NCBI GenBank assembly: GCA_001661245.1
Contig: KV454014.1
Location: 1 to 64,000 of the forward strand
Source: Pachysolen tannophilus NRRL Y-2460
Lineage: Eukaryota
Direction: 5' to 3'
DNA length: 64,000 nt
Position numbers and translations under genes: made by a program. The stretch's first letter is position 1. Every line of letters begins with the position of its first letter. Below the pieces are notes generated by a model, which had not been told where the DNA came from, ran no database searches, and was given only the letters and a program-made list of their open reading frames with translations. Positions 21,500 to 62,638 of this stretch are shown piece by piece.

Positions 21500-22073
21500 T
21501 TAATAGCCAACACTGATCAAGTAGTCAGCCAATTTCTCAACTACTGTTGTAGCATCTCCTGGCTGAACACCTGAGGGATAATGAGCAACCAAAATAGTTT
21601 GTGTTGATTTAACAATCACAACACCTTCGGCATCCTAAATAGAAGAGATGTTAGTAAAAAAAAGAGAAGATTTTTTTTTTTTTTTTTGATTTTTTAAACT
21701 TACGTGTTTACCATAAATTGATCTTTCATCAGCTCTTAATAAAAAATATTTTTGTTGTTGAACATGTAAACCATTAGCTTGCAAATTCAGAGGATTTGAA
21801 AAACCTTTAGTAATTTCCAGAATCTCATTTGGTTGTAACTGGAAATTATTCGAACTTGCCCATACGGAATCTCCAGCAGCTGAGTAAATTGTCGCTTTAT
21901 CAATTTTGCCTGTTGCTACCAAATTATCGGTATACGCTGTTGACCAAGAAAAAAAAAAAATTGATTGAATGTTAATACTTTGCTTGAACCAAGATAAATA
22001 TATTAAAAAAAACAAAAAAAATAGACAATTAAAACAATTATGAAAAATTAAATAACTAACCTTGCCACGACAT
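21500..22073 (-). CDS. PFY1: Profilin; exons 22073-22061, 21936-21704, 21634-21500
   Basis: [44 protein letters not shown]. Confidence 0.93.
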
Positions 22074-27704: not shown

Positions 27705-28343
27705 CACCAATCACCAATTACCAATCACTATCACCTCCCGTATCCCAAAATATCTGGAAACTACCAATTAACCAATTTCAACCACACAATCATGAAGTTC
27801 TTCATTAACAAAATGTTAACATTTCTTCTTATCTATACTTTTGCGTTGCTCTTCCGCCAGCCAAAACCACTAGAGCCAAAACCACTGCCGCCAGAATAAA
27901 CCCGGCAGCTGGTGGCGGGCAGGGCAGGGCGGGCCCAAGCTTGGCGGGGCCCAAGCCTGAAAATCTTTGCCTAAATTTTTGCCTAAATGTTTTCCCTTGA
28001 ATTTCCCGCCAAAGTTTTTGACGGGACCCTCCGCCTGATTTTTTGTCCGCCTCTTCTCACTTTTCTGCCATTTTTTCTGTTTTTTTTCTGTTTTTGCCCG
28101 TGTCAGGAGCGCAAGCTCTTTTTGGAGATTTCGAAATTTCACCAAGTTGTATTGTGTGTCAAGCTAATGGACGGCCCAATAGCAGTTTAAAATTTGAATC
28201 AACGAGGTCAAGTAGGTGTTGATTTAGAGAGGAAATAAAAGAAAAAAAAAAACTATCTCTTGAAGAGGTTTATTGTTTGAATTAATTGATTGAGTTGTTT
28301 TAAAAAAATATTTGGATAATAAGTAGGGATAGAGATAAAGAGA

Positions 28344-30329
28344 ATGTCTTCACAAGTTTTAAAACATTTCCAAAATTTAAAAATGTTTTCAATATCACAA
28401 GCAACTTTATCATCATGGTGTTTGAATGAGACTCAGTTACGAAAGAATTTTAATGAAAATCCAAATTTATCAATGTATAAGAAAAAACCGGTATTAAAAT
28501 ATCCTGAGGTGACTAAACTAGTTGAAAGTTATATTGATGAAAATGTGGCTAAAGGAGTTATAATTACAGATCAGTTGATTAAAGATTGTTTCAATTATTA
28601 TCTTGGAATATATGGATACGCAAAGGAAAGTGTATTGTTAAGTAGCGGGATGTTGCATTCTTTTAAAAAGAGAAATTCAATTAAAAAAGGCTTGAAAATA
28701 GATAAAAATCTTCTGGAACAGTTGCTGACACTGGAACCAACTCCAGTACCGGTTCCAGTACCGGCTCCAGTGTCAACTACTACTTCAGAAACTACACCAG
28801 TGTCTGCACCAGTGTCTGAACCAGTACCAGTTTCTGTACCGGTTTCAGTACCGGCACCAGTGCCGCCTCAGCTGCTGCTGCTGCCTCCTCAGCTGCAACT
28901 GTTGCTGGTTCTGACACCATCTGAATCTCCATCAGACCAACTGCAGATTCCTCTACAGGTTTCAACTGCATCCACAGCTCATATTCCTCCATTCCCACAC
29001 CCAACACATATACAGAGTATCTTGGAGAATTCAGCATTGGGTTTCAATACTAGGTTGATTCATTCCGATGATAGTAATTCAAATTTCTTCAATAATTACG
29101 GTAATAGAACTGTGGATCCAGTAACAACAGAGTTTAATGCCTTAGCCCACTCTGGGTTGATGGCTTCAGACAATTTACTGTTGAATGATGATAACAGCAA
29201 CAACAAACAGCAACAACAGCAACAACAGCAGCAGCAGCAACGACACCAGCGACAGCAATCGCGCCAAAATACAGGTAATTCGAATACTCCTATAAACACT
29301 AATATCATCTTAGACAATTTTTCATATTCTAGAACTAGTCATCCAAATTCTGAAAAAGTGGAAAAAATCTTGGAGAATATCACCAATGGATATGTGACGT
29401 TATATAATTCAGGAACATCTGCTATAATGGGACTTTTAACTTATTTGAACCCCAACAAAATTTGTATTAATAATAATGGTGGGTATCAGGGGACACATCA
29501 AGTTATTAAACTATTATCAAAATTAACTCATTTAGAAAAACTTTCACTAAATGAATATAATAAGCTAAGGAAAGGTGATGTTATGTTGATTGAATCACCA
29601 ATGAACCCTGAGGGTTATTGTGTTGATATCGAAAAATACTCTAAACTAGCTCATTCTAAAAATGCTCTCTTACTTGTGGATTCGACTTTAGCACCTCCTC
29701 CTTTACAAGATCCTTTTAAACATGGAGCTGATTATATCATCCATTCAGCAACTAAATATTTTAGTGGCCACTCTGATTTACTTGCAGGTTTTATAGTATC
29801 TAGTACAAAAGATACAAAGATAAATTTATTGGAAGAGAGATTTTCTTTAGGAACTAATATTGCTAATTTCGATTCATTCTTATTATTAAGATCATTAAGA
29901 ACTTTTAAGATGAGAATTTTACAACAATCTTCAAACACTTTCCAATTGATCAAATTCTTGATGAAAAATATTTCAAAGTACCCTATTATCACTAAAATTC
30001 ACCATTCTTCTTTACAATTAGATCCTTTTGTATTATTACAGTTGAACGGTTATTATAATCCAATATTTGCTATAGAATTTAAGTCCATGGAGATTGCAGA
30101 ATTATTAATTAATAGATTTAGTTTTTTGAATTGTAAAAATAATTTAACTGGTGGTGGAGTTGAAACCACGGTGGAATTGACTTATAAAAATCCAAATTTT
30201 GTTAATTTGGATTTTGATAATATCAATTCTTCTGTAGGTGCTAATCTTTTAAGATTCAGTGTGGGATGTGAAGATCACGAAGATTTAATCAATGATTTTG
30301 ATCAAGCTTTAAGTAGCTTTAATACGTAA
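28344..30329 (+). CDS. CENP-B/Tc5-type HTH fused to Cys/Met-metabolism PLP-dependent enzyme
   Basis: N-terminal ISQATLSSW..YPEV..SSGMLHSFKKR; C-terminal YSRTSHPN, VDSTLAPP, HSATKYFSGHSD, LLRFSVGCED. Confidence 0.8.
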   Translation: MSSQVLKHFQNLKMFSISQATLSSWCLNETQLRKNFNENPNLSMYKKKPVLKYPEVTKLVESYIDENVAKGVIITDQLIKDCFNYYLGIYGYAKESVLLSSGMLHSFKKRNSIKKGLKIDKNLLEQLLTLEPTPVPVPVPAPVSTTTSETTPVSAPVSEPVPVSVPVSVPAPVPPQLLLLPPQLQLLLVLTPSESPSDQLQIPLQVSTASTAHIPPFPHPTHIQSILENSALGFNTRLIHSDDSNSNFFNNYGNRTVDPVTTEFNALAHSGLMASDNLLLNDDNSNNKQQQQQQQQQQQRHQRQQSRQNTGNSNTPINTNIILDNFSYSRTSHPNSEKVEKILENITNGYVTLYNSGTSAIMGLLTYLNPNKICINNNGGYQGTHQVIKLLSKLTHLEKLSLNEYNKLRKGDVMLIESPMNPEGYCVDIEKYSKLAHSKNALLLVDSTLAPPPLQDPFKHGADYIIHSATKYFSGHSDLLAGFIVSSTKDTKINLLEERFSLGTNIANFDSFLLLRSLRTFKMRILQQSSNTFQLIKFLMKNISKYPIITKIHHSSLQLDPFVLLQLNGYYNPIFAIEFKSMEIAELLINRFSFLNCKNNLTGGGVETTVELTYKNPNFVNLDFDNINSSVGANLLRFSVGCEDHEDLINDFDQALSSFNT

Positions 30330-31834: not shown

Positions 31835-33364
31835 TCAAATGTAAAATTGTGGTTTACCAGAAGTTTTAGTTTGAGAATAAGAAGTTTGATGATCAACTCT
31901 TGGTGCTTCACGTAAAAATGAGTTAAATTCTCTATTACTAACAATACTAACAACACTACTTGCAGCACTGACATGTTCACTTTTCAAGATCAAATTATCT
32001 ATATTTGCAATTTCTGGTTCTTCACTTAAACAACCATTCATTCTAGCTTCATATTCCAGTGCTGCATGTCTTGCCTTTTCCATATATGTTTGATGTGAAG
32101 TATGATTATGATTTCTTTTAGTAGCATAATGAGCAAATGTTGGAGATTCAATAATATCTTGATTATTTCTTTTTTGTTGTAATTTTGTTAATGATTTATT
32201 TAACATGTTTAAAGATATTGAAGATGAAGGATTCATATTTGATTTTTTAAAATAATCACCTATATTTTTAATACTTTGTTCTGGTGATAAATTTCTTGGT
32301 GTATTTATAGGAGATTGTCTCGGAGAATAACCTAATTTATGTAAAGAATAATTTGATTTAAAACTTTGTAATAAATCAACATGACTTGTTGATTTTTCAA
32401 TTAAGAATTTATGATTTACCAATTCATCAATAGTTATTCTTTGATTTTGATTTAAATTAAAACATTTAGAAATAAAATCTTTAGCATTATCACTAATATT
32501 TTCCCAATATTCTTTTGGTTCAAAATAATAATCACCTGTCATTATAGCTTCTCTTGTTTCATCATCAGTTTCACAATCAAATGGCATATAACCACATAGT
32601 ACAAAATATGTTAATACTCCTAATGACCATATATCTACTGGGTAAGAATAACCAGTAATTTTTTCTTCAAGATAAATATCAATTTGTTCTTTTGATAAAG
32701 ATGAAGGAATGGGATATTTATGAATTAAAATTTCTGGTGCAATATGACTTAAAGTTCCACAAATTAAATTTAATTTATCCTTTTGTTTATTATAAAAAGT
32801 TGCTAATCCAAAATCAGTAATTAAAATTTCAGATTTTATTGAAGTTGTCTTAAATACTAAATTTTCAGATTTTAAATCTCTATGAATAATATTATGATGA
32901 TGTAAAAATTGAACTGCATCACATAATGATTTTATAATATTTATAGCATCTTGTTCAAAATAAGAACCATTTGATGAAATTTTATCAAATAAATCACCAC
33001 CTGTTGCTAAATCTGTAACTAAATATAATTCATCATCAGTTTCGAAAAAATCATTTAATGATAAAATATTTTTATGATTAAATTTTGAAATTTTTTTCAA
33101 TATTGTAATCTCATTTTGAATTAATGATTCTCTACCATACATCAAATTTTTTTTAATAACCTTAATAGCATAATGTAACCCAGAATCTTTATGAACTCCT
33201 TCTTTCACAACAGAATAAGTTCCTGATCCTAAAGTTTCAGCCAATACAACATATTTACATTTAAAATGTATTCTTTCATCAATATTAACTTTCCTAATAC
33301 TCTCTACTGAGGGCCATATATCACCCTGCTCATAATGGTAATCTTTCCAAACATTACTTGACAT
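31835..33364 (-). CDS. CaMK-group Ser/Thr kinase
   Basis: LGSGTYSVVK, HRDLKSEN, DFGLA, APE, DIWSLGV. Confidence 0.9.
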   Translation of the reverse strand: MSSNVWKDYHYEQGDIWPSVESIRKVNIDERIHFKCKYVVLAETLGSGTYSVVKEGVHKDSGLHYAIKVIKKNLMYGRESLIQNEITILKKISKFNHKNILSLNDFFETDDELYLVTDLATGGDLFDKISSNGSYFEQDAINIIKSLCDAVQFLHHHNIIHRDLKSENLVFKTTSIKSEILITDFGLATFYNKQKDKLNLICGTLSHIAPEILIHKYPIPSSLSKEQIDIYLEEKITGYSYPVDIWSLGVLTYFVLCGYMPFDCETDDETREAIMTGDYYFEPKEYWENISDNAKDFISKCFNLNQNQRITIDELVNHKFLIEKSTSHVDLLQSFKSNYSLHKLGYSPRQSPINTPRNLSPEQSIKNIGDYFKKSNMNPSSSISLNMLNKSLTKLQQKRNNQDIIESPTFAHYATKRNHNHTSHQTYMEKARHAALEYEARMNGCLSEEPEIANIDNLILKSEHVSAASSVVSIVSNREFNSFLREAPRVDHQTSYSQTKTSGKPQFYI

Positions 33365-34109
33365 ATCATTTATCTCTGCCCACTCATTCGCCCAACAAAA
33401 AAGATTAAAAGAAAAACAAAACTAAACTCTATTTCTATTCTATTTGAATAACTATTAATCAAGTTAATTTGGTTGATTTAATATTATCATGTTATTTTTT
33501 AAGAAAACAGAAGATCTCTTTCTATTTCTCTCGTATAAAAGTATTAAGAGCACGCACTTTTAAGCCTCAGCCGCGCACACTAATGCACATAAGCGCATTG
33601 GAGCAGCGCACACCAATATTTAGAAACAGCGCATACATTAGTGCACTTTAGCGCACAAAAACAGCGCGCATTAAAATATTTAAAAAGCAACATATCAGTG
33701 CACCATATTTACCTTAAAAAGCGTTATGCATATGTGTACCACAAAATATAAAAAAAAAATAAAGCGGATCGCACTAATCGCTAATAATGTACCGCAACTG
33801 TTTATTACACATGCGCAACACAATTGCGCTGTTTACTTGCGCACTACTTTTTTTTTTTTTTCATTTTTCATTTTCATTTTTTTTTATGTGACTTCGTTCG
33901 AATTCCTTTTTGACTTTGTTCTTTGCTATATAATTTTGAAAATTCACATTCATTTTTTAGGTAAAAAGACTTTATAATTTTAATTATTTAAAAATTAATC
34001 AAGTTATCGAGGAAGAATTGAAACTTTTCTTTTAGCAATTTTTTTTTTAGCAATTTTTGATTTTTTTTTGCTTTGGCAGTCAATTTTGTAAACTTATTGT
34101 GATAATAAC

Positions 34110-35525
34110 ATGGATTCGAAAGTAATTGGAATTTTAGGTGGTGGTCAATTAGGACGTATGATAGTGGAAGCTGCTAATAGGTTAAATATCAAGACCATAG
34201 TGTTGGATGCACCAAATTCACCGGCAAAGCAGATCAATGCATTAGATCCTCATGTTAATGGTTCTTTTACAGACCCAAAATGTATTAAGGAATTAGCTTC
34301 AAGATGTGATTTATTAACAGTTGAAATTGAACATGTTGATGCTGATTATTTAATGGAATTACAACTGCAAACTAATATTGAAATTTATCCATTACCTGAA
34401 ACTATTAAATTGATTCAGGATAAATATTTACAAAAATTACATTTATTAGAACATGATATTCAAGTTGTTGAATCTAAATCTGTTGAATCTACAAAAGAAT
34501 CTTTATTAACTATTGGAAAATCATTTGGGTATCCATTCATGTTAAAATCTAGAACTTTGGCTTATGATGGTAGAGGTAATTATGTTGTTAAATCTGAAGC
34601 AGGTATTGACGATGCTTTGAAAACGTTATCAAACCGTCCATTATATGTTGAAAAATGGGCTCCATTTGTTAAAGAATTGGCAGTTATGGTTGTTAGATCA
34701 GTTGATGGTAATGTTCAATCATACCCTGTAGTTGAAACTATTCATGAAAACAACATTTGTCATTTATGTTATTGTCCAGCTCGTGTTAATTATACTGTAC
34801 AAGAAAAAGCTCAACTATTGGCTAGAAATGCAATTAAAACTTTTAATGGTGCAGGTATATTTGGTGTAGAAATGTTTTTATTGGCAAATGGTGAATTGTT
34901 GATTAATGAAATTGCACCAAGACCACATAATTCAGGTCATTATACAATTGATGCTTGTAATATTTCACAATTTGAAGCTCATATTAGATCTATAACAAAT
35001 TTACCAATGCCAAAAGGTTTTACTTCATTAACTACAACATCAACAAATTCAATTATGTTAAACGTTCTTGGTGATTATATAACACCTGATGCAGAATTGG
35101 AAAAATGTCGTAAAGCTCTTGAAACTCCACATGCTTCAGTTTATTTATATGGTAAAACTACAAGACCTGGAAGAAAAATGGGTCATATCAACATTGTAAG
35201 TTCATCAATGGAAGATTGTCAACGTAGATTGGATTATATAATGGGTCATACTAATGAAATCCCAGCAAGCTTGGATTTCAATAAAGATAATCAAATTGCT
35301 GGAACTTCAATAAAACCATTAGTTGGTGTCATAATGGGTTCAGATTCAGATTTACCTGTAATGTCAAAAGGTTGTGAAATCTTGAAAAAATTTAATGTCC
35401 CATTCGAAGTTACAATCGTTTCAGCCCATAGAACTCCTCATAGAATGTCCAAATACGCTATAGAATCAACAAGAAGAGGACTCAAATGTATTATTGCAGG
35501 AGCAGGTGGTGCAGCACATTTACCA
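34110..35525 (+). CDS. ADE2: ADE2 5' part (ATP-grasp plus first half of AIR-carboxylase domain), truncated after codon 472
   Basis: [52 protein letters not shown], then read-through into non-coding sequence to a stop at 35627. Confidence 0.93.
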
Positions 35526-35964
35526 TCTTCTTCTTCTACTACTACTACTATTACTACTTTTCCTTTTTCTTTTCCTATTTCCCTTGATTTGATTTCCTTC
35601 TATTTTAAAAACAAAACAAAACAATAAAAAAAAAAAAAAAAAAAAAAATACAACTCAATTAAAACCTAAATCTTATCAATGAACTATTAATCAACCTCAA
35701 CCAAAAGATCAATTAATTCATCAATATTTCATTAAATTATATAAACTAAATCAATTCAATAATTTATAGTAACAAGTTTCAATTTATGGTTTTATTCACT
35801 TTTGATTTCTAAGGTAGAAATTATTGGTTTGATTTACACGACACACTTTCTCCTTTACAAATTACTAAGAGATTGAGTGTAATGATGATGATGAAGAGGT
35901 TATTGAAGTTAATTGGTTTATTGAGTAAATATATATATATAGAGAGAGAAAGAGATTATATAGG

Positions 35965-36261
35965 TTATTGTTTCAAGTAGTCTTCGTAGCCAATTGCTTC
36001 TAATCTCTGTGCTTTTGTCAACACTTCTTCTTCCATGTTGTTCATATAAGTTTCCATTTCAATTAACCATTTAGAATCGTGAGCACCTAGTATTTTAATT
36101 GCTAATAGAGCAGCATTTGTTGCATTATTTATGGCAACCGTGGCAACTGGAACACCTCTTGGCATCTGGACGATACTGTGTAAAGAATCTACTCCATCTA
36201 AAGTTGAGCCTTTAACAGGGACACCTATGACGGGTAATGGAGTCATAGCAGCAACCATACC
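35965..36261 (-). CDS. ADE2: ADE2 3' part (rest of AIR-carboxylase domain), on the opposite strand
   Basis: [46 protein letters not shown] is the exact continuation of HLP. Confidence 0.93.
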
Positions 36262-36349
36262 AAGTAAAAGAAAGAAAGAAAGAAAGAAAGGATCAAGATA
36301 CTAATTTTGGTTATTCTCTTTTTTATTTCTTTTTGATTTGGAAATAAAG
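36262..36349 (+). other. Orphan spliceosomal intron lacking its 5' GT, flanked by 10-bp inverted repeats (36252-36261 / 36349-36358)
   Basis: Starts AAGTAAAAG; TACTAAT at ~36299-36305; pyrimidine tract; first downstream AG at 36348-36349, followed by GTATGGTTG. Confidence 0.65.
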
Positions 36350-36351
36350 GT

Positions 36352-39300
36352 ATGGTTGAACCAGAAAATAGTGGTAGTAACGATTTTGATGGAGACGTTG
36401 AAATGCTGTCCAATGATCAAGTTAACGAAGAATCTGATAAGTTGGTAGATTTACCGGCGGATAGTGTGGAAGTAAAGCCGCTGCACGGCGGATCTGATGT
36501 GGCGGTAGAAGGGGACGCAAAGAGAATGAGGGAAAGTCTTGTTGGTGTTAGCGCTGATAATGAGCTAGAAGTTGTGAAAAGCAATGGGACAGAACAATTA
36601 CAGGAATTGCAAGAATTGCAAGATTCACAGGAATTACAAGAATTACAGGAATCACAAGAATCACAATTTTTACAAAATTTACAAAATTCACAAGAAATTA
36701 TTCAAGAGAATGATTTACAGTCTCAAATTATTCAATTGTTACCTGAAAATCCTAAAATCTATAAAACCTCAGATAGAATTTTGGATGATTTAATAAACGA
36801 TATTTCAATGTTTAAAATGGGGTTTAATAGTGGTATATTAGGATTGCCTACAATAATGTATGCATCGAATTTATCATATTATTTAAGTGAAAAACAATAT
36901 GCATCTGATTATAAATTATTAATTTTAAATAATCAATTGGCCTATGCTCCAAGTCAATTTATGCCGGAAGATGGATATACAATAATAAGAGGTTTAATAG
37001 TGGAGAATCGCGATAATTATATTCCTAATACATTGGTATCAAACGAATTATACCATGTTAAAATTATAATAAAAGAAGATGAAGAAATTTTTAAAAAAAA
37101 TCCAACAAGTATTAAACATACAAAAAAATGTTACAAGCATGGGTTTTTCAAAATTGAGGATGATGAATTGACCCCACAAAATAAAATCAAATTGATCACT
37201 AATTATAGAAAAGTGCTAGAAAATTCAAATTTAGAAAAAAAAGATTTACTGTTTGTTGAAAAATCAATACCAAACGTTATTGATTCAGCAAATTTTATAT
37301 GTAAAAGTTGCAAGTTAATCATAAGGTTGGAATTGTCTACAGCAGAATTTGATAAAGAAGCAATAAATAATTTTCAATTAGATGAAATACAACTAAGATT
37401 TAGCCGTTATATCTCACTGTTGAACGGTAAAGGAGAAGAAGATATTGCAGTTAATGAAAAAATTCCATCTATAGAACAATGTTTTACAACAGTGGGGAAA
37501 GTTGTAAAAGGACCTTTACAACGTTTGCCTAATGACGAAATTAAAAGTATTAGAGCAGATAATAAATCTGTTAATATACATTTAGGTATCGAGTTTATGA
37601 TAAATTATTTGAATTTTACAAACAATGAAGAAATGTCAGAACTATTCCCTCCAAACATGGAATTGCCATTAGTAAAGGAAAGTTATATAAGAAAATATTT
37701 TGAATCAATATATTATTCAAAAATGAGTAACCTAACTTACAGTGGAGAAAATATTATTTTGAAACATTTAAATGAAGCAGTACATTTTGGAGGAAATGCA
37801 TCATTGGATATAGAGGATCGCAAATTGGACCATTCCAAAGGTTACATAACGCTTTCCTGTAAAAATAGGGATTATTCAGATGAAAACATTAAGGAAATTT
37901 ATAAGATCTTAGTTACAATCGACCCTGCAAATGAAATGAAATATTTTGATTGCTTAAAAGAGGTTGCAAACTATAGAAGAACAACCAATATAATGACCTA
38001 CATTGCACAACTATCATCAGAGGGAAAAATTGGATTTGATGAATTATGTGAATATTATAAAACTTTACAAATTCCTTTAGATGCCAACGTGAATGATATT
38101 TCTGATGAAATTTTGATTGATCAATATAAGCTATTAGTTTCAAATACAACATCAAAATCATTGAAGGATTCATTAAGATCAAGTTTTTCAAAATTAGGAA
38201 AAATTAGACATAGTCTGTTTATTCAAGATTATTTGAATTCTGAGCCTTTAGATGATTTGGAACAGGCTTATAATAATCTTGATATAAGTGAATCTGTTGA
38301 TGATGATGTTGTTATCACTGCATATGGAATTAAGGTTGACGATTTCCCAACAGATACCAATTTGTACGATCGTTCATTATTGTCAATTGCTATTAATAGA
38401 AAGTCGTTCATGTTATTAGATTATATTGAAAATAATTTAGGCCATTTGAATTACTTCTTACCAATTGATTATAGTCAAGCTTTTTCGTATATTGGATGTG
38501 ATGAGTTGGCAAATGAATTTCAAATTATTACTATTTTCCAAGAAAGATTACTGAAAGATCATTCTTGTGATGTGAGATTGCTAAGAGCATACTTGAGAGA
38601 AATTGGACAAACTAGAAATTCTCAATTAATTCTCAACTTTCTAAAAACTGGAATTATTGATCAAAGATACTTGCCAGTGGAAAATACTCCAGTTGGTTTG
38701 AATAATATTGGTAATACATGCTATTTGAATTCTTTATTGCAATATTATTTTGTTATAGAACCTTTAAGATCTGAAATTTTAAAATTTAATGAGGTCTTGA
38801 CGAAAGAACTGTTTGAGTCAAATGAATTATTTTCTAGAAGAAGAATTGGTGGAAGAACTGTAGGATATAAAGAAACAGAAAGATCATATCAATTCATATA
38901 CCAACTACGAGATTTGTTTGAAGAATTAATCAAAAGCAATGAGAGATGTGTTTCTCCAAAAAAGGAATTGGCATATTTGGCATTTTCACCAAGTACGGAC
39001 GAGGTTGAATTTGATGTTTCCCAATTAGATGACGAAGATTTTGATGAACAAGGACTCACAGATAAAGATAAACAGCTAGTACTCAGATCAAACTCTACAG
39101 TCATTGCTAATTCGACTTCTTCACTAGAAAGTAGTCAGCATTCCACTAATACTTTATCTGTCGAAAATGAAAAGTCAATGGATATAGATTCCAAGGAGTC
39201 TGACACTGAGGCCACCCTTTTCGAAAATGAGACTGTTTTGGTTTCAAGTCCGCAGAAAAGAAGATTATCATCGGAATCTAGATCCGGAGGTAGTACTAAT

Positions 39301-40566
39301 ATTAAATCAATAAACAAAGGTAATGAAACCATACCTCTGGCTGATAACGAATCTTTGTTGGAAACTACCGATGAAGTCAACAAGGTCGATGACGACTCCT
39401 CTCTCCTGATAGATCGTGACAGTGTTACTGATGAACCAAAACTATTACATGAAAAAACTGAAAGGAAAAATACTTCCGCTATTTGCAAAATCAGTACGGA
39501 CCAAATGGAAAATGCTCTTGAAATGGGTAGACAACAGGATGTAACGGAATGTATTGAAAATGTATTATTTCAGATGGAAAGTGCATTTACTCCCACGGCA
39601 TTAGATGAGGACAACGAACAAATTGATTTGATCAAAAACTTGTTTTACGGTAAAACAAAACAGACTTTACAACCCATTGATCCGGAAACTGGCTCACCCC
39701 TTACTAGCGGTAATGTCAGATCAAAGGTTGAAAGATTTTTGAGTTTATTGGTTAATATTGGTGATCATCCTAAAGATATTTATGATGCTTTAGATACTTA
39801 TTTCACTGAGGATATAATCAATTTAGATGATGGTCAGGTAAAGAGAACTTTGACCATTGCAGAATTGCCTAAAATCTTACAGATTCAAATTCAAAGAGTT
39901 CAATTTGATAGAGAAAGGTATATGCCGGTTAAGTCTATTGATCCGATTCCTTTTGAAGAAAAAATTTATATGGATAGGTATATGGAAACTGATGATGATG
40001 AAATAATTGAAAAAAGAAAGGAAGTTTTCAACTGGAAAAAAGAAATAGCAAATCTAAACTCTGTAAAAGCAAAATTATCTGAGAAAATAGATGGTACACA
40101 GTATAATGCCAAGGACTCTTTGACCGTATTGAAAAATTATTTAGAATCTGGTACCTTGGATAATTTTGAAGGGATAAGTGTGAAGCCAGAAACTATTCTG
40201 ACGTTGAACGCCTTGATTGAAAGGATCTTTCTGAAAGAAACTTCGTTGAATAATGAGTTAGCTGTCTTGCAAAATAATATTGCTCAACAATTTACAAACT
40301 TCAACAAAATTGGATATTCAATTTTTGCCATATTTATTCATCGAGGAGAAGCATCATATGGCCATTATTGGATTTACATTAAAGACCCTAAGAGGAACGT
40401 TTATAGAAAATATAACGATGAAAATGTTAGTGAAGTTTCATTAAAAGAAGTTTTCAACTTTGATGAGGGAAACACAGCAACACCTTATTTTTTGGTTTAC
40501 GTGAAAGATGATTTGGAAGATGATTATGTTGAGCCTTTGAAAAGAGATCTAGAAAATATTAGCTGA
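36352..40566 (+). CDS. UBP2: Ubiquitin-specific protease
   Basis: Cys box GLNNIGNTCYLNSLLQY, QQDVTEC, His box HRGEASYGHYWIY; long repeat-containing N-terminus. Confidence 0.9.
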   Translation: MVEPENSGSNDFDGDVEMLSNDQVNEESDKLVDLPADSVEVKPLHGGSDVAVEGDAKRMRESLVGVSADNELEVVKSNGTEQLQELQELQDSQELQELQESQESQFLQNLQNSQEIIQENDLQSQIIQLLPENPKIYKTSDRILDDLINDISMFKMGFNSGILGLPTIMYASNLSYYLSEKQYASDYKLLILNNQLAYAPSQFMPEDGYTIIRGLIVENRDNYIPNTLVSNELYHVKIIIKEDEEIFKKNPTSIKHTKKCYKHGFFKIEDDELTPQNKIKLITNYRKVLENSNLEKKDLLFVEKSIPNVIDSANFICKSCKLIIRLELSTAEFDKEAINNFQLDEIQLRFSRYISLLNGKGEEDIAVNEKIPSIEQCFTTVGKVVKGPLQRLPNDEIKSIRADNKSVNIHLGIEFMINYLNFTNNEEMSELFPPNMELPLVKESYIRKYFESIYYSKMSNLTYSGENIILKHLNEAVHFGGNASLDIEDRKLDHSKGYITLSCKNRDYSDENIKEIYKILVTIDPANEMKYFDCLKEVANYRRTTNIMTYIAQLSSEGKIGFDELCEYYKTLQIPLDANVNDISDEILIDQYKLLVSNTTSKSLKDSLRSSFSKLGKIRHSLFIQDYLNSEPLDDLEQAYNNLDISESVDDDVVITAYGIKVDDFPTDTNLYDRSLLSIAINRKSFMLLDYIENNLGHLNYFLPIDYSQAFSYIGCDELANEFQIITIFQERLLKDHSCDVRLLRAYLREIGQTRNSQLILNFLKTGIIDQRYLPVENTPVGLNNIGNTCYLNSLLQYYFVIEPLRSEILKFNEVLTKELFESNELFSRRRIGGRTVGYKETERSYQFIYQLRDLFEELIKSNERCVSPKKELAYLAFSPSTDEVEFDVSQLDDEDFDEQGLTDKDKQLVLRSNSTVIANSTSSLESSQHSTNTLSVENEKSMDIDSKESDTEATLFENETVLVSSPQKRRLSSESRSGGSTNIKSINKGNETIPLADNESLLETTDEVNKVDDDSSLLIDRDSVTDEPKLLHEKTERKNTSAICKISTDQMENALEMGRQQDVTECIENVLFQMESAFTPTALDEDNEQIDLIKNLFYGKTKQTLQPIDPETGSPLTSGNVRSKVERFLSLLVNIGDHPKDIYDALDTYFTEDIINLDDGQVKRTLTIAELPKILQIQIQRVQFDRERYMPVKSIDPIPFEEKIYMDRYMETDDDEIIEKRKEVFNWKKEIANLNSVKAKLSEKIDGTQYNAKDSLTVLKNYLESGTLDNFEGISVKPETILTLNALIERIFLKETSLNNELAVLQNNIAQQFTNFNKIGYSIFAIFIHRGEASYGHYWIYIKDPKRNVYRKYNDENVSEVSLKEVFNFDEGNTATPYFLVYVKDDLEDDYVEPLKRDLENIS

Positions 40567-46710: not shown

Positions 46711-47189
46711 CTTTCAACACCATACAACACCAAGATTTTACCTTTACCACACACAATCTCGCACTTGAATCACAACAATTAATATTTCAATAACATAAAC
46801 TAGTTGTTGTTGTTGTTGTAAAGGAAGGCTCTTCTCGGATATTACCCATTTATAGCATTGGTTGGTTTGAGCTGCGGCGCACGACCTCCAAATTTATCAT
46901 CAACATTATCAGAAGGAAGAAATGGAGTTACAAATTGACGAATTTGAGTACTAAAAAATGTATTTCAAGAGTAAAAAAAAAGTGTGATGGGTATATATAG
47001 AAAGAAATTAAAGAAATTAAGAAAAAAAAAGAATAATTACCCAAAGAATTAGTATATAAAAAAGAACAAAAGAAAAAAAAAAAAAAAAGAAGAAAAAAAA
47101 AATAATTGATGTGCCGTTCCCTCCCCGTATGCCTTTACCATTGCCGTTACCGTTACCGTTACCGTTTGAGTTTTGAAAAGCATTCAAGA

Positions 47190-55875: not shown

Positions 55876-56618
55876 ATGATTCATTCAGTGCTAATATGTA
55901 AGTTTTTCTTTCCCTTTTACTTTTTTTTTTTTTTTTTAAAAAAAAATTGATTTGATTTACTAACTTGTTGTTCTTGAATTTCACTTTTAGTTAATAATGA
56001 TGGTTTACCTCGTTTATTAAAATTTTATACCCCAGTGGTGAGTAATTTAAAAAAATGATTAATTTTTATTTTATGATACTAATATATTTTTCTTATTATC
56101 TTTAGGATATACCTACACAACAATTATTATTAAAACAAATTCATAAACTTGTAATTGGTAGACCTTCAAATCAATGTTCATTTTTAACTCCTCCTCCATT
56201 ATTAGAAGATGAAAAATATTCAGATTTAAAAATTATTTATAGACATTATGCAACACTTTTCTTTGTATTTGTTGTTGATGAACAAGAATCTGAATTAGGA
56301 ATATTGGATCTTATTCAAGTCTTTGTGGAAGTTTTAGATAAATGTTTTGAAAATGTTTGTGAATTAGATTTAGTATTTGGTTGGCAAGTTTTAGAAACTT
56401 GTCTTGAAGAAATTATTCAAGGTGGTATGGTTACAGATACTACTATAGTGAAAATTGTTAATGCTGTTGATGAAGCTAATAAACAAGTTAAAGCAAGTTC
56501 AAGTAGTGGAATGATAAATTTAGGTGGAAATAATAATCAAGGTCAAAATAGAGGAGTTTTTTCTACAACCAGTCTTTGGAACGCTATGGATAGTAGATTA
56601 AGTGGTTGGGGAAGATAA
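55876..56618 (+). CDS. APS3: AP-3 sigma subunit; exons 55876-55897, 55991-56037, 56106-56618
   Basis: MIHSVLI|FNNDGLPRLLKFYTPV|D..YRHYATLFFVF..ESELGILDLIQVFVEVLDKCF. Confidence 0.92.
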
Positions 56619-60845: not shown

Positions 60846-60892
60846 ATAAATCGATATTAGAGATATATTGGGATTTAATAAGGTGATATAAG

Positions 60893-62638
60893 ATGTTTAA
60901 TTCTCAGTCTACGACGGGATACCGGTATAATAATGGGGTGAATTGGAGTGGTAATACTGGGTTTAATTCTGGGGGAGTAAATGGTGTTGGAAATGGTTCA
61001 CTTAGAAGGGTATGGATCACTAGAGCAGGAAAGATTCCAACAACGGTGTTTACGAATCAGAGTACTATTGTTGATGATTTGAAGACTTTGATTTTGTCAA
61101 AGTATCCAAATAGTTTGGGGAAACATTTTGATCCTAGTGATTTGATGATTAAATTGAAAATTGGGAATAATAATAGTAATACTGGGGTGTATGGAGGAAC
61201 AGGAGGAGGAGGAGGGTATAATAAAATGAATGCTAATGTGAATAATGAGCATTTGCAACTGCATCCTTTGTCGCCACAACCGGTCCCTGTTGCTTCGTCG
61301 CTTTTAAATGACAAAAATGATAATAATAATAATTATAATAATAATAATTATAATAATAATAATAGCAGTAGCGGTAACATGTTCAAATTTAAACAAAAAC
61401 TGCTGTTTGAGTCCAATTTTCTGATACTGTACTCTGCTAATCCTTCACCAGTTAGCAATGCTTATATATTATTAGAACCTGATCAAAATATATGGCAGGT
61501 GATAGACCAGTACTACCCAAATGGTATGACTATAGATGATTGCTTGATTGTTGATGTACCAGATAATAACGTTCAAGGAAATAATTTATCAACCCCAATA
61601 ACTTCAAATTTTTCTCTGCAAACAAAGATTAATCCGCTGTCTTTAAATAATAGTGATCCTTCCTCAAGTAATAGGAAGAATTTCATATCAAACAATATTC
61701 ATAAGAGATCTCAATCAACTCCTCAATCACCTTTAAATAGCGTTGTTGATAATAAAAATAATAACAACGGTAATCAATCAAGTGTATTGATGATGCCCAA
61801 AAATTTTAATTCATTATCAACAAATTTGGAAAAATCTACTAGCTCTATTGATTATAATGAATTAGCAAATTTTGCAGGAAATGGAGGAGGAACAGGTTTG
61901 AATAATAAATCTCAATTGAAAAATACATTACCTCATATAATTGAAGATCAAAATAAACCATCGGTAGATCCAACAAAGGCTAATAAACACAAGAATTCTT
62001 CATCTACTTCTTCGTTAATGGCTCATTCTCCGTTAAAGGAAAATTCTTCTTCCAATTCAATAAAACTTGCTGCTTTAAGTAAAAAATTCAAATCGACTAC
62101 GGAAAAAGTTTTACCTTCAATAAATGTATTAGTAGTTGAAGATAATTCTATTAATCAAGCCATTTTAGGTGCTTTCTTAAGAAAGAGAAAGATAAATTAT
62201 AAAATAGCTAAAAATGGACAAGAAGCTATAGAAAAATGGAAAGAAGGAAATTTTCATTTGGTATTGATGGATATTCAATTACCAGTTAAATCCGGTATAG
62301 AGGCAACAATTGAAATACGTAGATTGGAAAAATTAAATAACATTGGTTTATTTAATAATGATTCTACATTGATTACTGGTAAGAATCTTAACAATACTAG
62401 CACTAGCAGTCTTGTTAAATTAAACTTAGAAGATGAATTGGATTCAAGTATTTTTAGAACACCAGTTATTATAGTGGCTTTAACTGCTTCAACTTCAAAA
62501 ATCGATAGACAAAAAGCATTAGCTGCCGGTTGTAATGATTTTCTAACTAAACCTGTAAATTTGGTGTGGTTGCAAAATAAAATTATCGAATGGGGTTGTA
62601 TGCAGGCATTAATCGATTTCGATCATTGGAAGGACTGA
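60893..62638 (+). CDS. SSK1: HOG-pathway response regulator
   Basis: VLVVEDNSINQAIL, LMDIQLPVKSG, VALTAS, FLTKPVN, EWGCMQALIDFD. Confidence 0.92.
   Translation: MFNSQSTTGYRYNNGVNWSGNTGFNSGGVNGVGNGSLRRVWITRAGKIPTTVFTNQSTIVDDLKTLILSKYPNSLGKHFDPSDLMIKLKIGNNNSNTGVYGGTGGGGGYNKMNANVNNEHLQLHPLSPQPVPVASSLLNDKNDNNNNYNNNNYNNNNSSSGNMFKFKQKLLFESNFLILYSANPSPVSNAYILLEPDQNIWQVIDQYYPNGMTIDDCLIVDVPDNNVQGNNLSTPITSNFSLQTKINPLSLNNSDPSSSNRKNFISNNIHKRSQSTPQSPLNSVVDNKNNNNGNQSSVLMMPKNFNSLSTNLEKSTSSIDYNELANFAGNGGGTGLNNKSQLKNTLPHIIEDQNKPSVDPTKANKHKNSSSTSSLMAHSPLKENSSSNSIKLAALSKKFKSTTEKVLPSINVLVVEDNSINQAILGAFLRKRKINYKIAKNGQEAIEKWKEGNFHLVLMDIQLPVKSGIEATIEIRRLEKLNNIGLFNNDSTLITGKNLNNTSTSSLVKLNLEDELDSSIFRTPVIIVALTASTSKIDRQKALAAGCNDFLTKPVNLVWLQNKIIEWGCMQALIDFDHWKD

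Follow-up and report, generated by a model that had tools for sequence, protein, structure and literature searches.

The ADE2 gene of Pachysolen tannophilus NRRL Y-2460 is split within its PurE domain by a reversed 736-bp block, probably through mis-orientation in the draft assembly

Results

ADE2 locus and its neighbours

The window analysed here comprises positions 1 to 64,000 of contig KV454014.1 from the genome assembly of Pachysolen tannophilus NRRL Y-2460 (GCA_001661245.1). Its G+C content is 29.7% and it carries ordinary budding-yeast genes; tRNA genes were not found in it. The open reading frame (ORF) starting at 34110 on the plus strand is ADE2, the fungal fusion of PurK and PurE, and lies between two intact neighbours (Table 1). 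The last sensible residue of this ORF is residue 472, encoded by CCA at 35523-35525. On the minus strand, the sequence from 36261 reads GGT ATG GTT GCT GCT (GMVAA...) and continues for 98 codons to 35968, followed by TAA at 35967-35965.

Table 1. Features at the ADE2 locus as assembled (positions within the window)
Feature	Coordinates	Strand	Description	Basis
Upstream neighbour	31838..33364	-	Ser/Thr protein kinase, intact	ORFs, Pfam
ADE2 5' part, codons 1-472	34110..35525	+	PurK and first half of PurE/AIRC, ending ...AAHLP	Pfam, ORFs, alignment
Reversed block, 736 bp	35526..36261		Blunt ends, no base lost or gained	
Read-through tail, 33 codons and TAA (35625-35627)	35526..35627	+	Created by the junction	
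ADE2 downstream region in the block, about 440 bp	35526..35964	-		Sequence, homopolymer list, repeat masks
ADE2 3' part, 98 codons (...YLKQ) and stop	35965..36261	-	Second half of PurE/AIRC	
Spacer between block and next gene	36262..36351		Purine-rich, (AAAG)n	Read from sequence
Downstream neighbour	36352..40566	+	Ubiquitin C-terminal hydrolase (UCH and RPT repeats), intact	ORFs, Pfam

The domain content of the two parts was determined with Pfam. The plus-strand ORF contains PF22660 (E 3.5e-27), PF02222 (E 2.9e-66) and PF17769 (E 5.2e-18), all matched over the full or near-full length of the profiles, and thus the pre-ATP-grasp, ATP-grasp and PurK_C domains that make up the N-terminal PurK portion of fungal ADE2. 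Its share of the PurE domain corresponds to positions 2-69 of the 148 in the AIRC profile. The 3' part matched positions 70-147 of the same profile (E 7.3e-31), which places the cut between positions 69 and 70 and makes the halves meet exactly. In the motif GGAAHLPGM, the cut falls between P and G. In a PDB search, the 3' part aligned over its whole length (residues 1-98) with residues 84-181 of the PurE structure 1o4v (E 7.9e-32). Neither half contains an internal stop or a frameshift and no decay is visible in the ORFs or the alignment. A complete PurE/AIRC domain in one chain is absent from the locus as assembled and was regained only after reversing 35526-36261 in silico, which yields a single ORF of 570 aa. 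Judged by the sequence, the match between the two ADE2 halves is far beyond chance. The initial annotation had described ADE2 as cut within its AIR-carboxylase signature with an inverted 3' part, and had noted that no codon was lost and that no frameshift or internal stop was present. Both statements were confirmed, the former by the abutment at 69/70, by 1o4v and by seven of seven homologues, the latter by the restored ORF.

Beyond residue 472, the plus-strand ORF reads into a tail with in-frame TCT/ACT (Ser/Thr) repeats. The tail sequence corresponds to the far, purine-rich end of the region downstream of ADE2, read as the reverse complement. It had been described before as running into CTT/CTA repeats; the repeats are there, but their phase in the reading frame is the one given here. 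The tail has no ADE2 homology and aligned to nothing in any of the seven homologues. The public protein model of this gene, P0001 (505 aa), terminates at the end of the tail. It was the sole 100% match among the 120 matches listed from 8000 scored candidates and is represented by one member and one record. A collinear ADE2 protein with 100% identity was not among these 120 matches, which were drawn from a collection of 5.8 billion proteins.

The ADE2 ORF contains a single CTG codon (34365-34367), which encodes residue 86 and is given as Ala in the stored translation of P0001, in keeping with genetic code 26, the code named for P. tannophilus nuclei. CUG-to-Ala decoding is described for P. tannophilus (PMC4937558). 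CTG codons are rare in the window, with 102 out of 14,378 codons (0.7%) in 30 large ORFs. A cluster of twelve CTG codons, four of them consecutive, is located at 28683-28970 (+) in the ORF 28323-30329, which encodes a Cys/Met PLP enzyme. Under code 26, the cluster gives a natural Pro/Ala/Gln/Val-rich linker (...PPQAAAAPPQAQALAVATP...), while the standard code would result in an odd Leu-rich stretch.

Comparison with other ADE2 proteins

All of the seven full-length yeast homologues that were aligned read unbroken through ...AAHLPGMVAA..., and neither the tail of 33 residues nor a split in the middle of PurE occurs in any of them. The PurE loops SAHRTP and GGAAHLPGM are both present in the P. 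tannophilus gene and identical to the consensus of the alignment. Among the ADE2 matches listed, the identity over the first 472 residues was between 66 and 78%. The closest relative among them, P0002, showed 78% identity over the N-terminal query and 76% in the alignment, and it is collinear. After the window's own protein, the next best ADE2 reached 78% and came from Logan only (annotated or predicted proteins of 259-826 aa). ADE2 homologues listed were mostly between 557 and 575 aa long; the restored 570 aa thus correspond to a normal ADE2 length. For the 38 bases to the left of the first junction, metagenome contigs yielded no exact match. None of the papers found in a literature search concerned this locus, as judged by titles and the beginnings of abstracts.

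Junctions and content of the reversed block

The junctions were inspected for traces of their origin. The breakpoints have an ambiguity of 0 nt: there is no palindromic or complementary sequence at either end and no microhomology. No inverted repeat spanning both junctions was present among the 25 pairs shown out of 82. Those of the 25 pairs that link the block ends to the flanks consist of A/T- or purine-rich low-complexity sequence with 71-83% complementarity. Within the window, no repeated 31-mer was found in 34000-37500 and no repeated 15- to 21-mer around 36100-36180. The left breakpoint is located in unique coding sequence, which shares no repeated 15- to 31-mer with the rest of the window. 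The 64 kb contain no N bases, and there is no gap at 35525/35526 or at 36261/36262. Thus, the block is bordered by neither a gap, an N run nor a repeat, but only by low-complexity tracts at or near its borders. Reversing the block joins its purine-rich end directly to the purine-rich spacer at 36262. A CRISPR origin of the flip was considered and rejected, as inspection by eye showed no NGG or CCN suitably spaced from the left breakpoint.

The part of the block that follows the ADE2 stop codon probably represents the 3' UTR and terminator of the gene. It contains a TA/GA microsatellite (35916-35962), an A23 run (35626-35648) and a CT-rich end (35526-35580), and the masked repeat tracts coincide with these low-complexity tracts. 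At the other end of the block, the 3' half begins with G-M and therefore has an ATG available (36258-36256); the divergently oriented UCH gene is 90 bp away. The 10-mer GGTATGGTTG at the start of the ADE2 3' part (36252-36261, -) recurs in the surroundings of the UCH start codon (36350-36359, +). In the assembly, the two copies of GGTATGGTTG are perfect inverted counterparts of 10 bp separated by 88 nt; a pair of this length is probably due to chance.

Splice signals are lacking at both junctions. On the plus strand, CCA is followed by TCTTCT and hence by no GT, and on the minus strand GGTATG is preceded by ...TTACTT and hence by no AG. Introns of the window look different: the profilin gene (21560-22072, -) has two short introns with the 5' sites GTTAGT and GTAAGT and the 3' ends CAG and TAG, and the second one contains a TACTAAC branch point. 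RNA-level repair, which had been proposed for ADE2, thus found no support in the sequence, as the GT that should follow 35525 and the AG that should precede 36261 on the minus strand are missing, whereas the profilin introns possess both. Close to the right breakpoint (2 nt away, at 36264) there is a weak GTAAAA. Upstream of the UCH ATG (36298-36351, +), TACTAAT, a T-rich run and AAAG resemble a branch point and a 3' splice site, which may point to an intron at the 5' end of the UCH gene or in its 5' UTR.

The other large ORFs of the window were surveyed for comparable cases. Among 28 further large ORFs (25 with Pfam hits and three without), none has a domain of which the missing part lies on the opposite strand. 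Of the ORFs with partial Pfam matches, profilin was the only one examined further, and its partial match (2-83 of 127) is due to its two introns. The other partial profile matches were a clathrin adaptor small chain (26-140 of 142), a response regulator (1-69 of 111) and a GDSL lipase (36-178 of 178). The match of the clathrin adaptor ORF (56106-56615, +) starts only at profile position 26, and a 5' exon is probably missing from this ORF. The receiver domain of the response regulator is encoded in the ORF 60887-62635 (+). A recombinase, transposase or integrase was not detected among the 30 other large ORFs (27 with a Pfam family and three without).

Public sequencing runs

Five public sequencing runs contained a share of 0.96 of 266 words sampled from the locus. 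Four of them share a single sample from 2010-11; the fifth belongs to a study of 2023 that is filed under a different organism label. RNA data sets were not among the runs listed. Four of the five runs, namely three from the 2010-11 sample and the 2023 run, were compared with the window as Logan contigs. The 2010-11 runs share one sample, which may be the assembly's own source, and the 2023 run may be from the same strain. Therefore, the runs are not independent witnesses of the species.

In all four runs, no contig piece was placed on 34000-36298; the filters of the method drop records and the tracts 35519-35663, 35916-35962 and 36258-36298 are skipped, so that this empty stretch speaks neither for nor against either form. 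Neither junction was bridged by any placed contig in either orientation in the four runs, the contigs being of a kind that drops rare variants. However, the contig that fits from 36299 rightwards has extra letters on its left-hand side in each of the runs (158, 158, 159 and 159). If the window form were correct, these letters would be those from 36140/1 to 36298. The 117-118 unmasked ones among them (up to 36257) would be placeable, as contig pieces as short as 18 nt are listed by the placement method, yet they were unplaced. The collinear form predicts instead that the extra letters consist of 36262-36298 and of 35526-35646/7 in reverse complement. Both stretches fall entirely inside the masks 36258-36298 and 35519-35663, and consequently nothing would be listed. 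The comparison is arithmetic on record coordinates and not an inspected alignment.

The two forms also differ in where the contig would stop. The collinear form would put its left end inside the A23 run, while position 36140/1, where the window form would place it, has no homopolymer and no 15- to 31-mer that is repeated within the window. The right end of the same contigs is at 47089-47091 in the three runs from one sample, in an A-rich tract with an A16 run at 47073-47088, and both ends show a raggedness of 1-3 nt. Ends in A-rich tracts point to homopolymers as stopping places of these contigs. Homopolymer runs of 15-29 nt occur 19 times in the 64 kb of the window, and contig ends lie in the A-rich tract 47073-47102 in three of the four runs. 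Short-read assemblies of this genome are thus expected to fragment at intergenic poly(A/T).

The share of 0.96 means that approx. 10-12 of the 266 sampled words are missing in each of the five runs. Two absent junctions would remove 60 out of 2571 words, i.e. about six of the sampled ones, and a break at the A run would remove a few more. The window form predicts fewer missing words than the collinear form. The number of missing words is weakly suggestive of two missing junctions plus one break.

Discussion

ADE2 of P. tannophilus is present in two halves that together form an undamaged gene, and the question is how the second half came to lie on the other strand. The block 35526-36261 is probably mis-oriented in the draft assembly and the true gene collinear and functional. 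The locus would then hold an ordinary, intact and collinear ADE2, encoding a PurK-PurE fusion of 570 aa, with its terminator behind it, and the block that carries the final 98 codons and the sequence downstream of them would have been put in backwards during assembly. The 505-aa public model and the orphan ORF of 98 codons would be products of this orientation error and no biological event would be involved. We infer a collinear form in the underlying reads and adenine prototrophy of the organism. This reading is favoured because the flip is perfectly reciprocal and blunt, restores the ORF of 570 aa and leaves halves without decay, and because the purine tract of the reversed block runs into the spacer at 36262. 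It is also favoured by P0002 and the six other aligned homologues, all of which are collinear, and indirectly by the 158-159 unplaced letters that fit the collinear and not the window form in four of four runs.

The growth of the strain points in the same direction. Yeast nitrogen base without amino acids contains no adenine, and growth without adenine needs a working ADE2. The type strain of P. tannophilus, CBS4044, was cultivated in a defined medium containing yeast nitrogen base without amino acids according to PMC3610204, the reference list of which equates CBS 4044 with NRRL Y-2460. The state of the public assembly of this strain also fits an assembly error, as it is a scaffold-level draft with a contig N50 in the 10^4 bin and less than 2% N (PMC13232491).

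Some features of the locus speak against an assembly error. Local mis-orientation of small blocks occurs in draft short-read or 454-era scaffolds, but it is usually bounded by N gaps or inverted repeats. The window has no N and no gap at the junctions, the left breakpoint is located in unique coding sequence, and no assembler step is evident that would produce a seamless flip there. The same seamless assembly without N or gap, together with a breakpoint in unique sequence that offers no obvious cause for an assembler error, would be accounted for if a very recent inversion of the 736 bp had really taken place in the sequenced stock through two double-strand breaks and precise rejoining, making it an ade2 null. 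Its products would be a 5' protein of PurK, half a PurE fold and a nonsense tail of 33 residues, and a 3' half without a promoter of its own. That the 120 listed matches include the truncated model as the sole 100% match, and no collinear identical protein beside it, is in line with such an event. It is nevertheless a rather unlikely one, as end-joining does not usually produce two blunt joins that neither lose nor gain a base and lack microhomology, both gene halves are free of decay, the contig coordinates fit the collinear form in four of four runs including the one of 2023, and the type strain grows without adenine (PMC3610204).

It is very unlikely that the split is maintained as a switch or as a divided gene, be it by reversible inversion, by rejoining at the RNA level or by separate expression and reassembly of the protein fragments. 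Both halves are perfectly intact, the 3' half has an ATG 90 bp from the divergent UCH gene, and Pachysolen is reported to use one programmed inversion, the MAT flip/flop (PMC6692504). In this MAT switch, an 8-kb region with 2-kb inverted repeats is inverted by homologous recombination (PMC6692504). At ADE2, however, inverted repeats at the segment ends as in invertons are missing from the 25 of 82 pairs shown, the breakpoint ambiguity is 0 nt and, according to Pfam, the genes that flank the block encode a kinase and the UCH hydrolase and no recombinase. GT and AG are absent from the junctions, unlike in the real introns of the window, and none of the seven aligned homologues is split in the middle of the PurE fold. 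If the inversion were real and fixed and the strain grew without adenine all the same, ADE2 might be rebuilt by fragment complementation inside the PurE oligomer, which appears extremely improbable. In that case, the product of 472 residues with PurK and half of PurE would pair with a second half of 97 residues starting from the ATG at 36258, and the promoter for the latter would have to lie in the 90-bp spacer, which it has in common with the divergent UCH gene. Among the readings listed in the initial annotation, misassembly, which is the best one, and a very recent real inversion survive, whereas reversible inversion and RNA repair have gained no support.

Given the probable mis-orientation of the block, the 505-aa public ADE2 model of this genome is probably wrong and should not be trusted as is. 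It could mislead the inference of adenine auxotrophy, the design of ADE2 markers or CRISPR targets, and counts of pathway completeness. If the inversion were real, it would be a simple null allele in one stock, useful to strain users but not new biology. Both of these readings are ordinary and the locus matters mainly as a case of quality control.

Several known systems can be compared with this locus. Classical ade2 null alleles serve as red/white colour markers in yeasts and are point mutations, deletions or insertions that were lab-made or selected. A real inversion would have the same consequences (no AIR carboxylase, a need for adenine and red pigment), but as a lesion it would differ, being balanced and blunt and present in a strain that is described as wild type. 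With mis-orientations in draft scaffolds, the ADE2 block shares the exact reversal with unchanged sequence and the low-complexity tracts (CT-rich, A23 and TA/GA) at which short-read contigs break; it differs from them in the lack of bordering N gaps or inverted repeats. The MAT flip/flop of P. tannophilus and Ogataea resembles the locus insofar as a chromosomal segment of yeasts from the same group can take two alternative orientations, but at 8 kb with 2-kb repeats it differs from the ADE2 block of 736 bp without a flanking repeat (PMC6692504). A further comparison is with fungal ADE2 proteins themselves. As assembled, the PurE domain of the window's gene is split and its second half lies on the other strand, whereas the motifs SAHRTP and GGAAHLPGMVAA are conserved as in these proteins. 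After reversal of the block, domain order and length are equal to those of ADE2 from [Candida] railenensis, Cyberlindnera fabianii, Candida parapsilosis and Candida maltosa.
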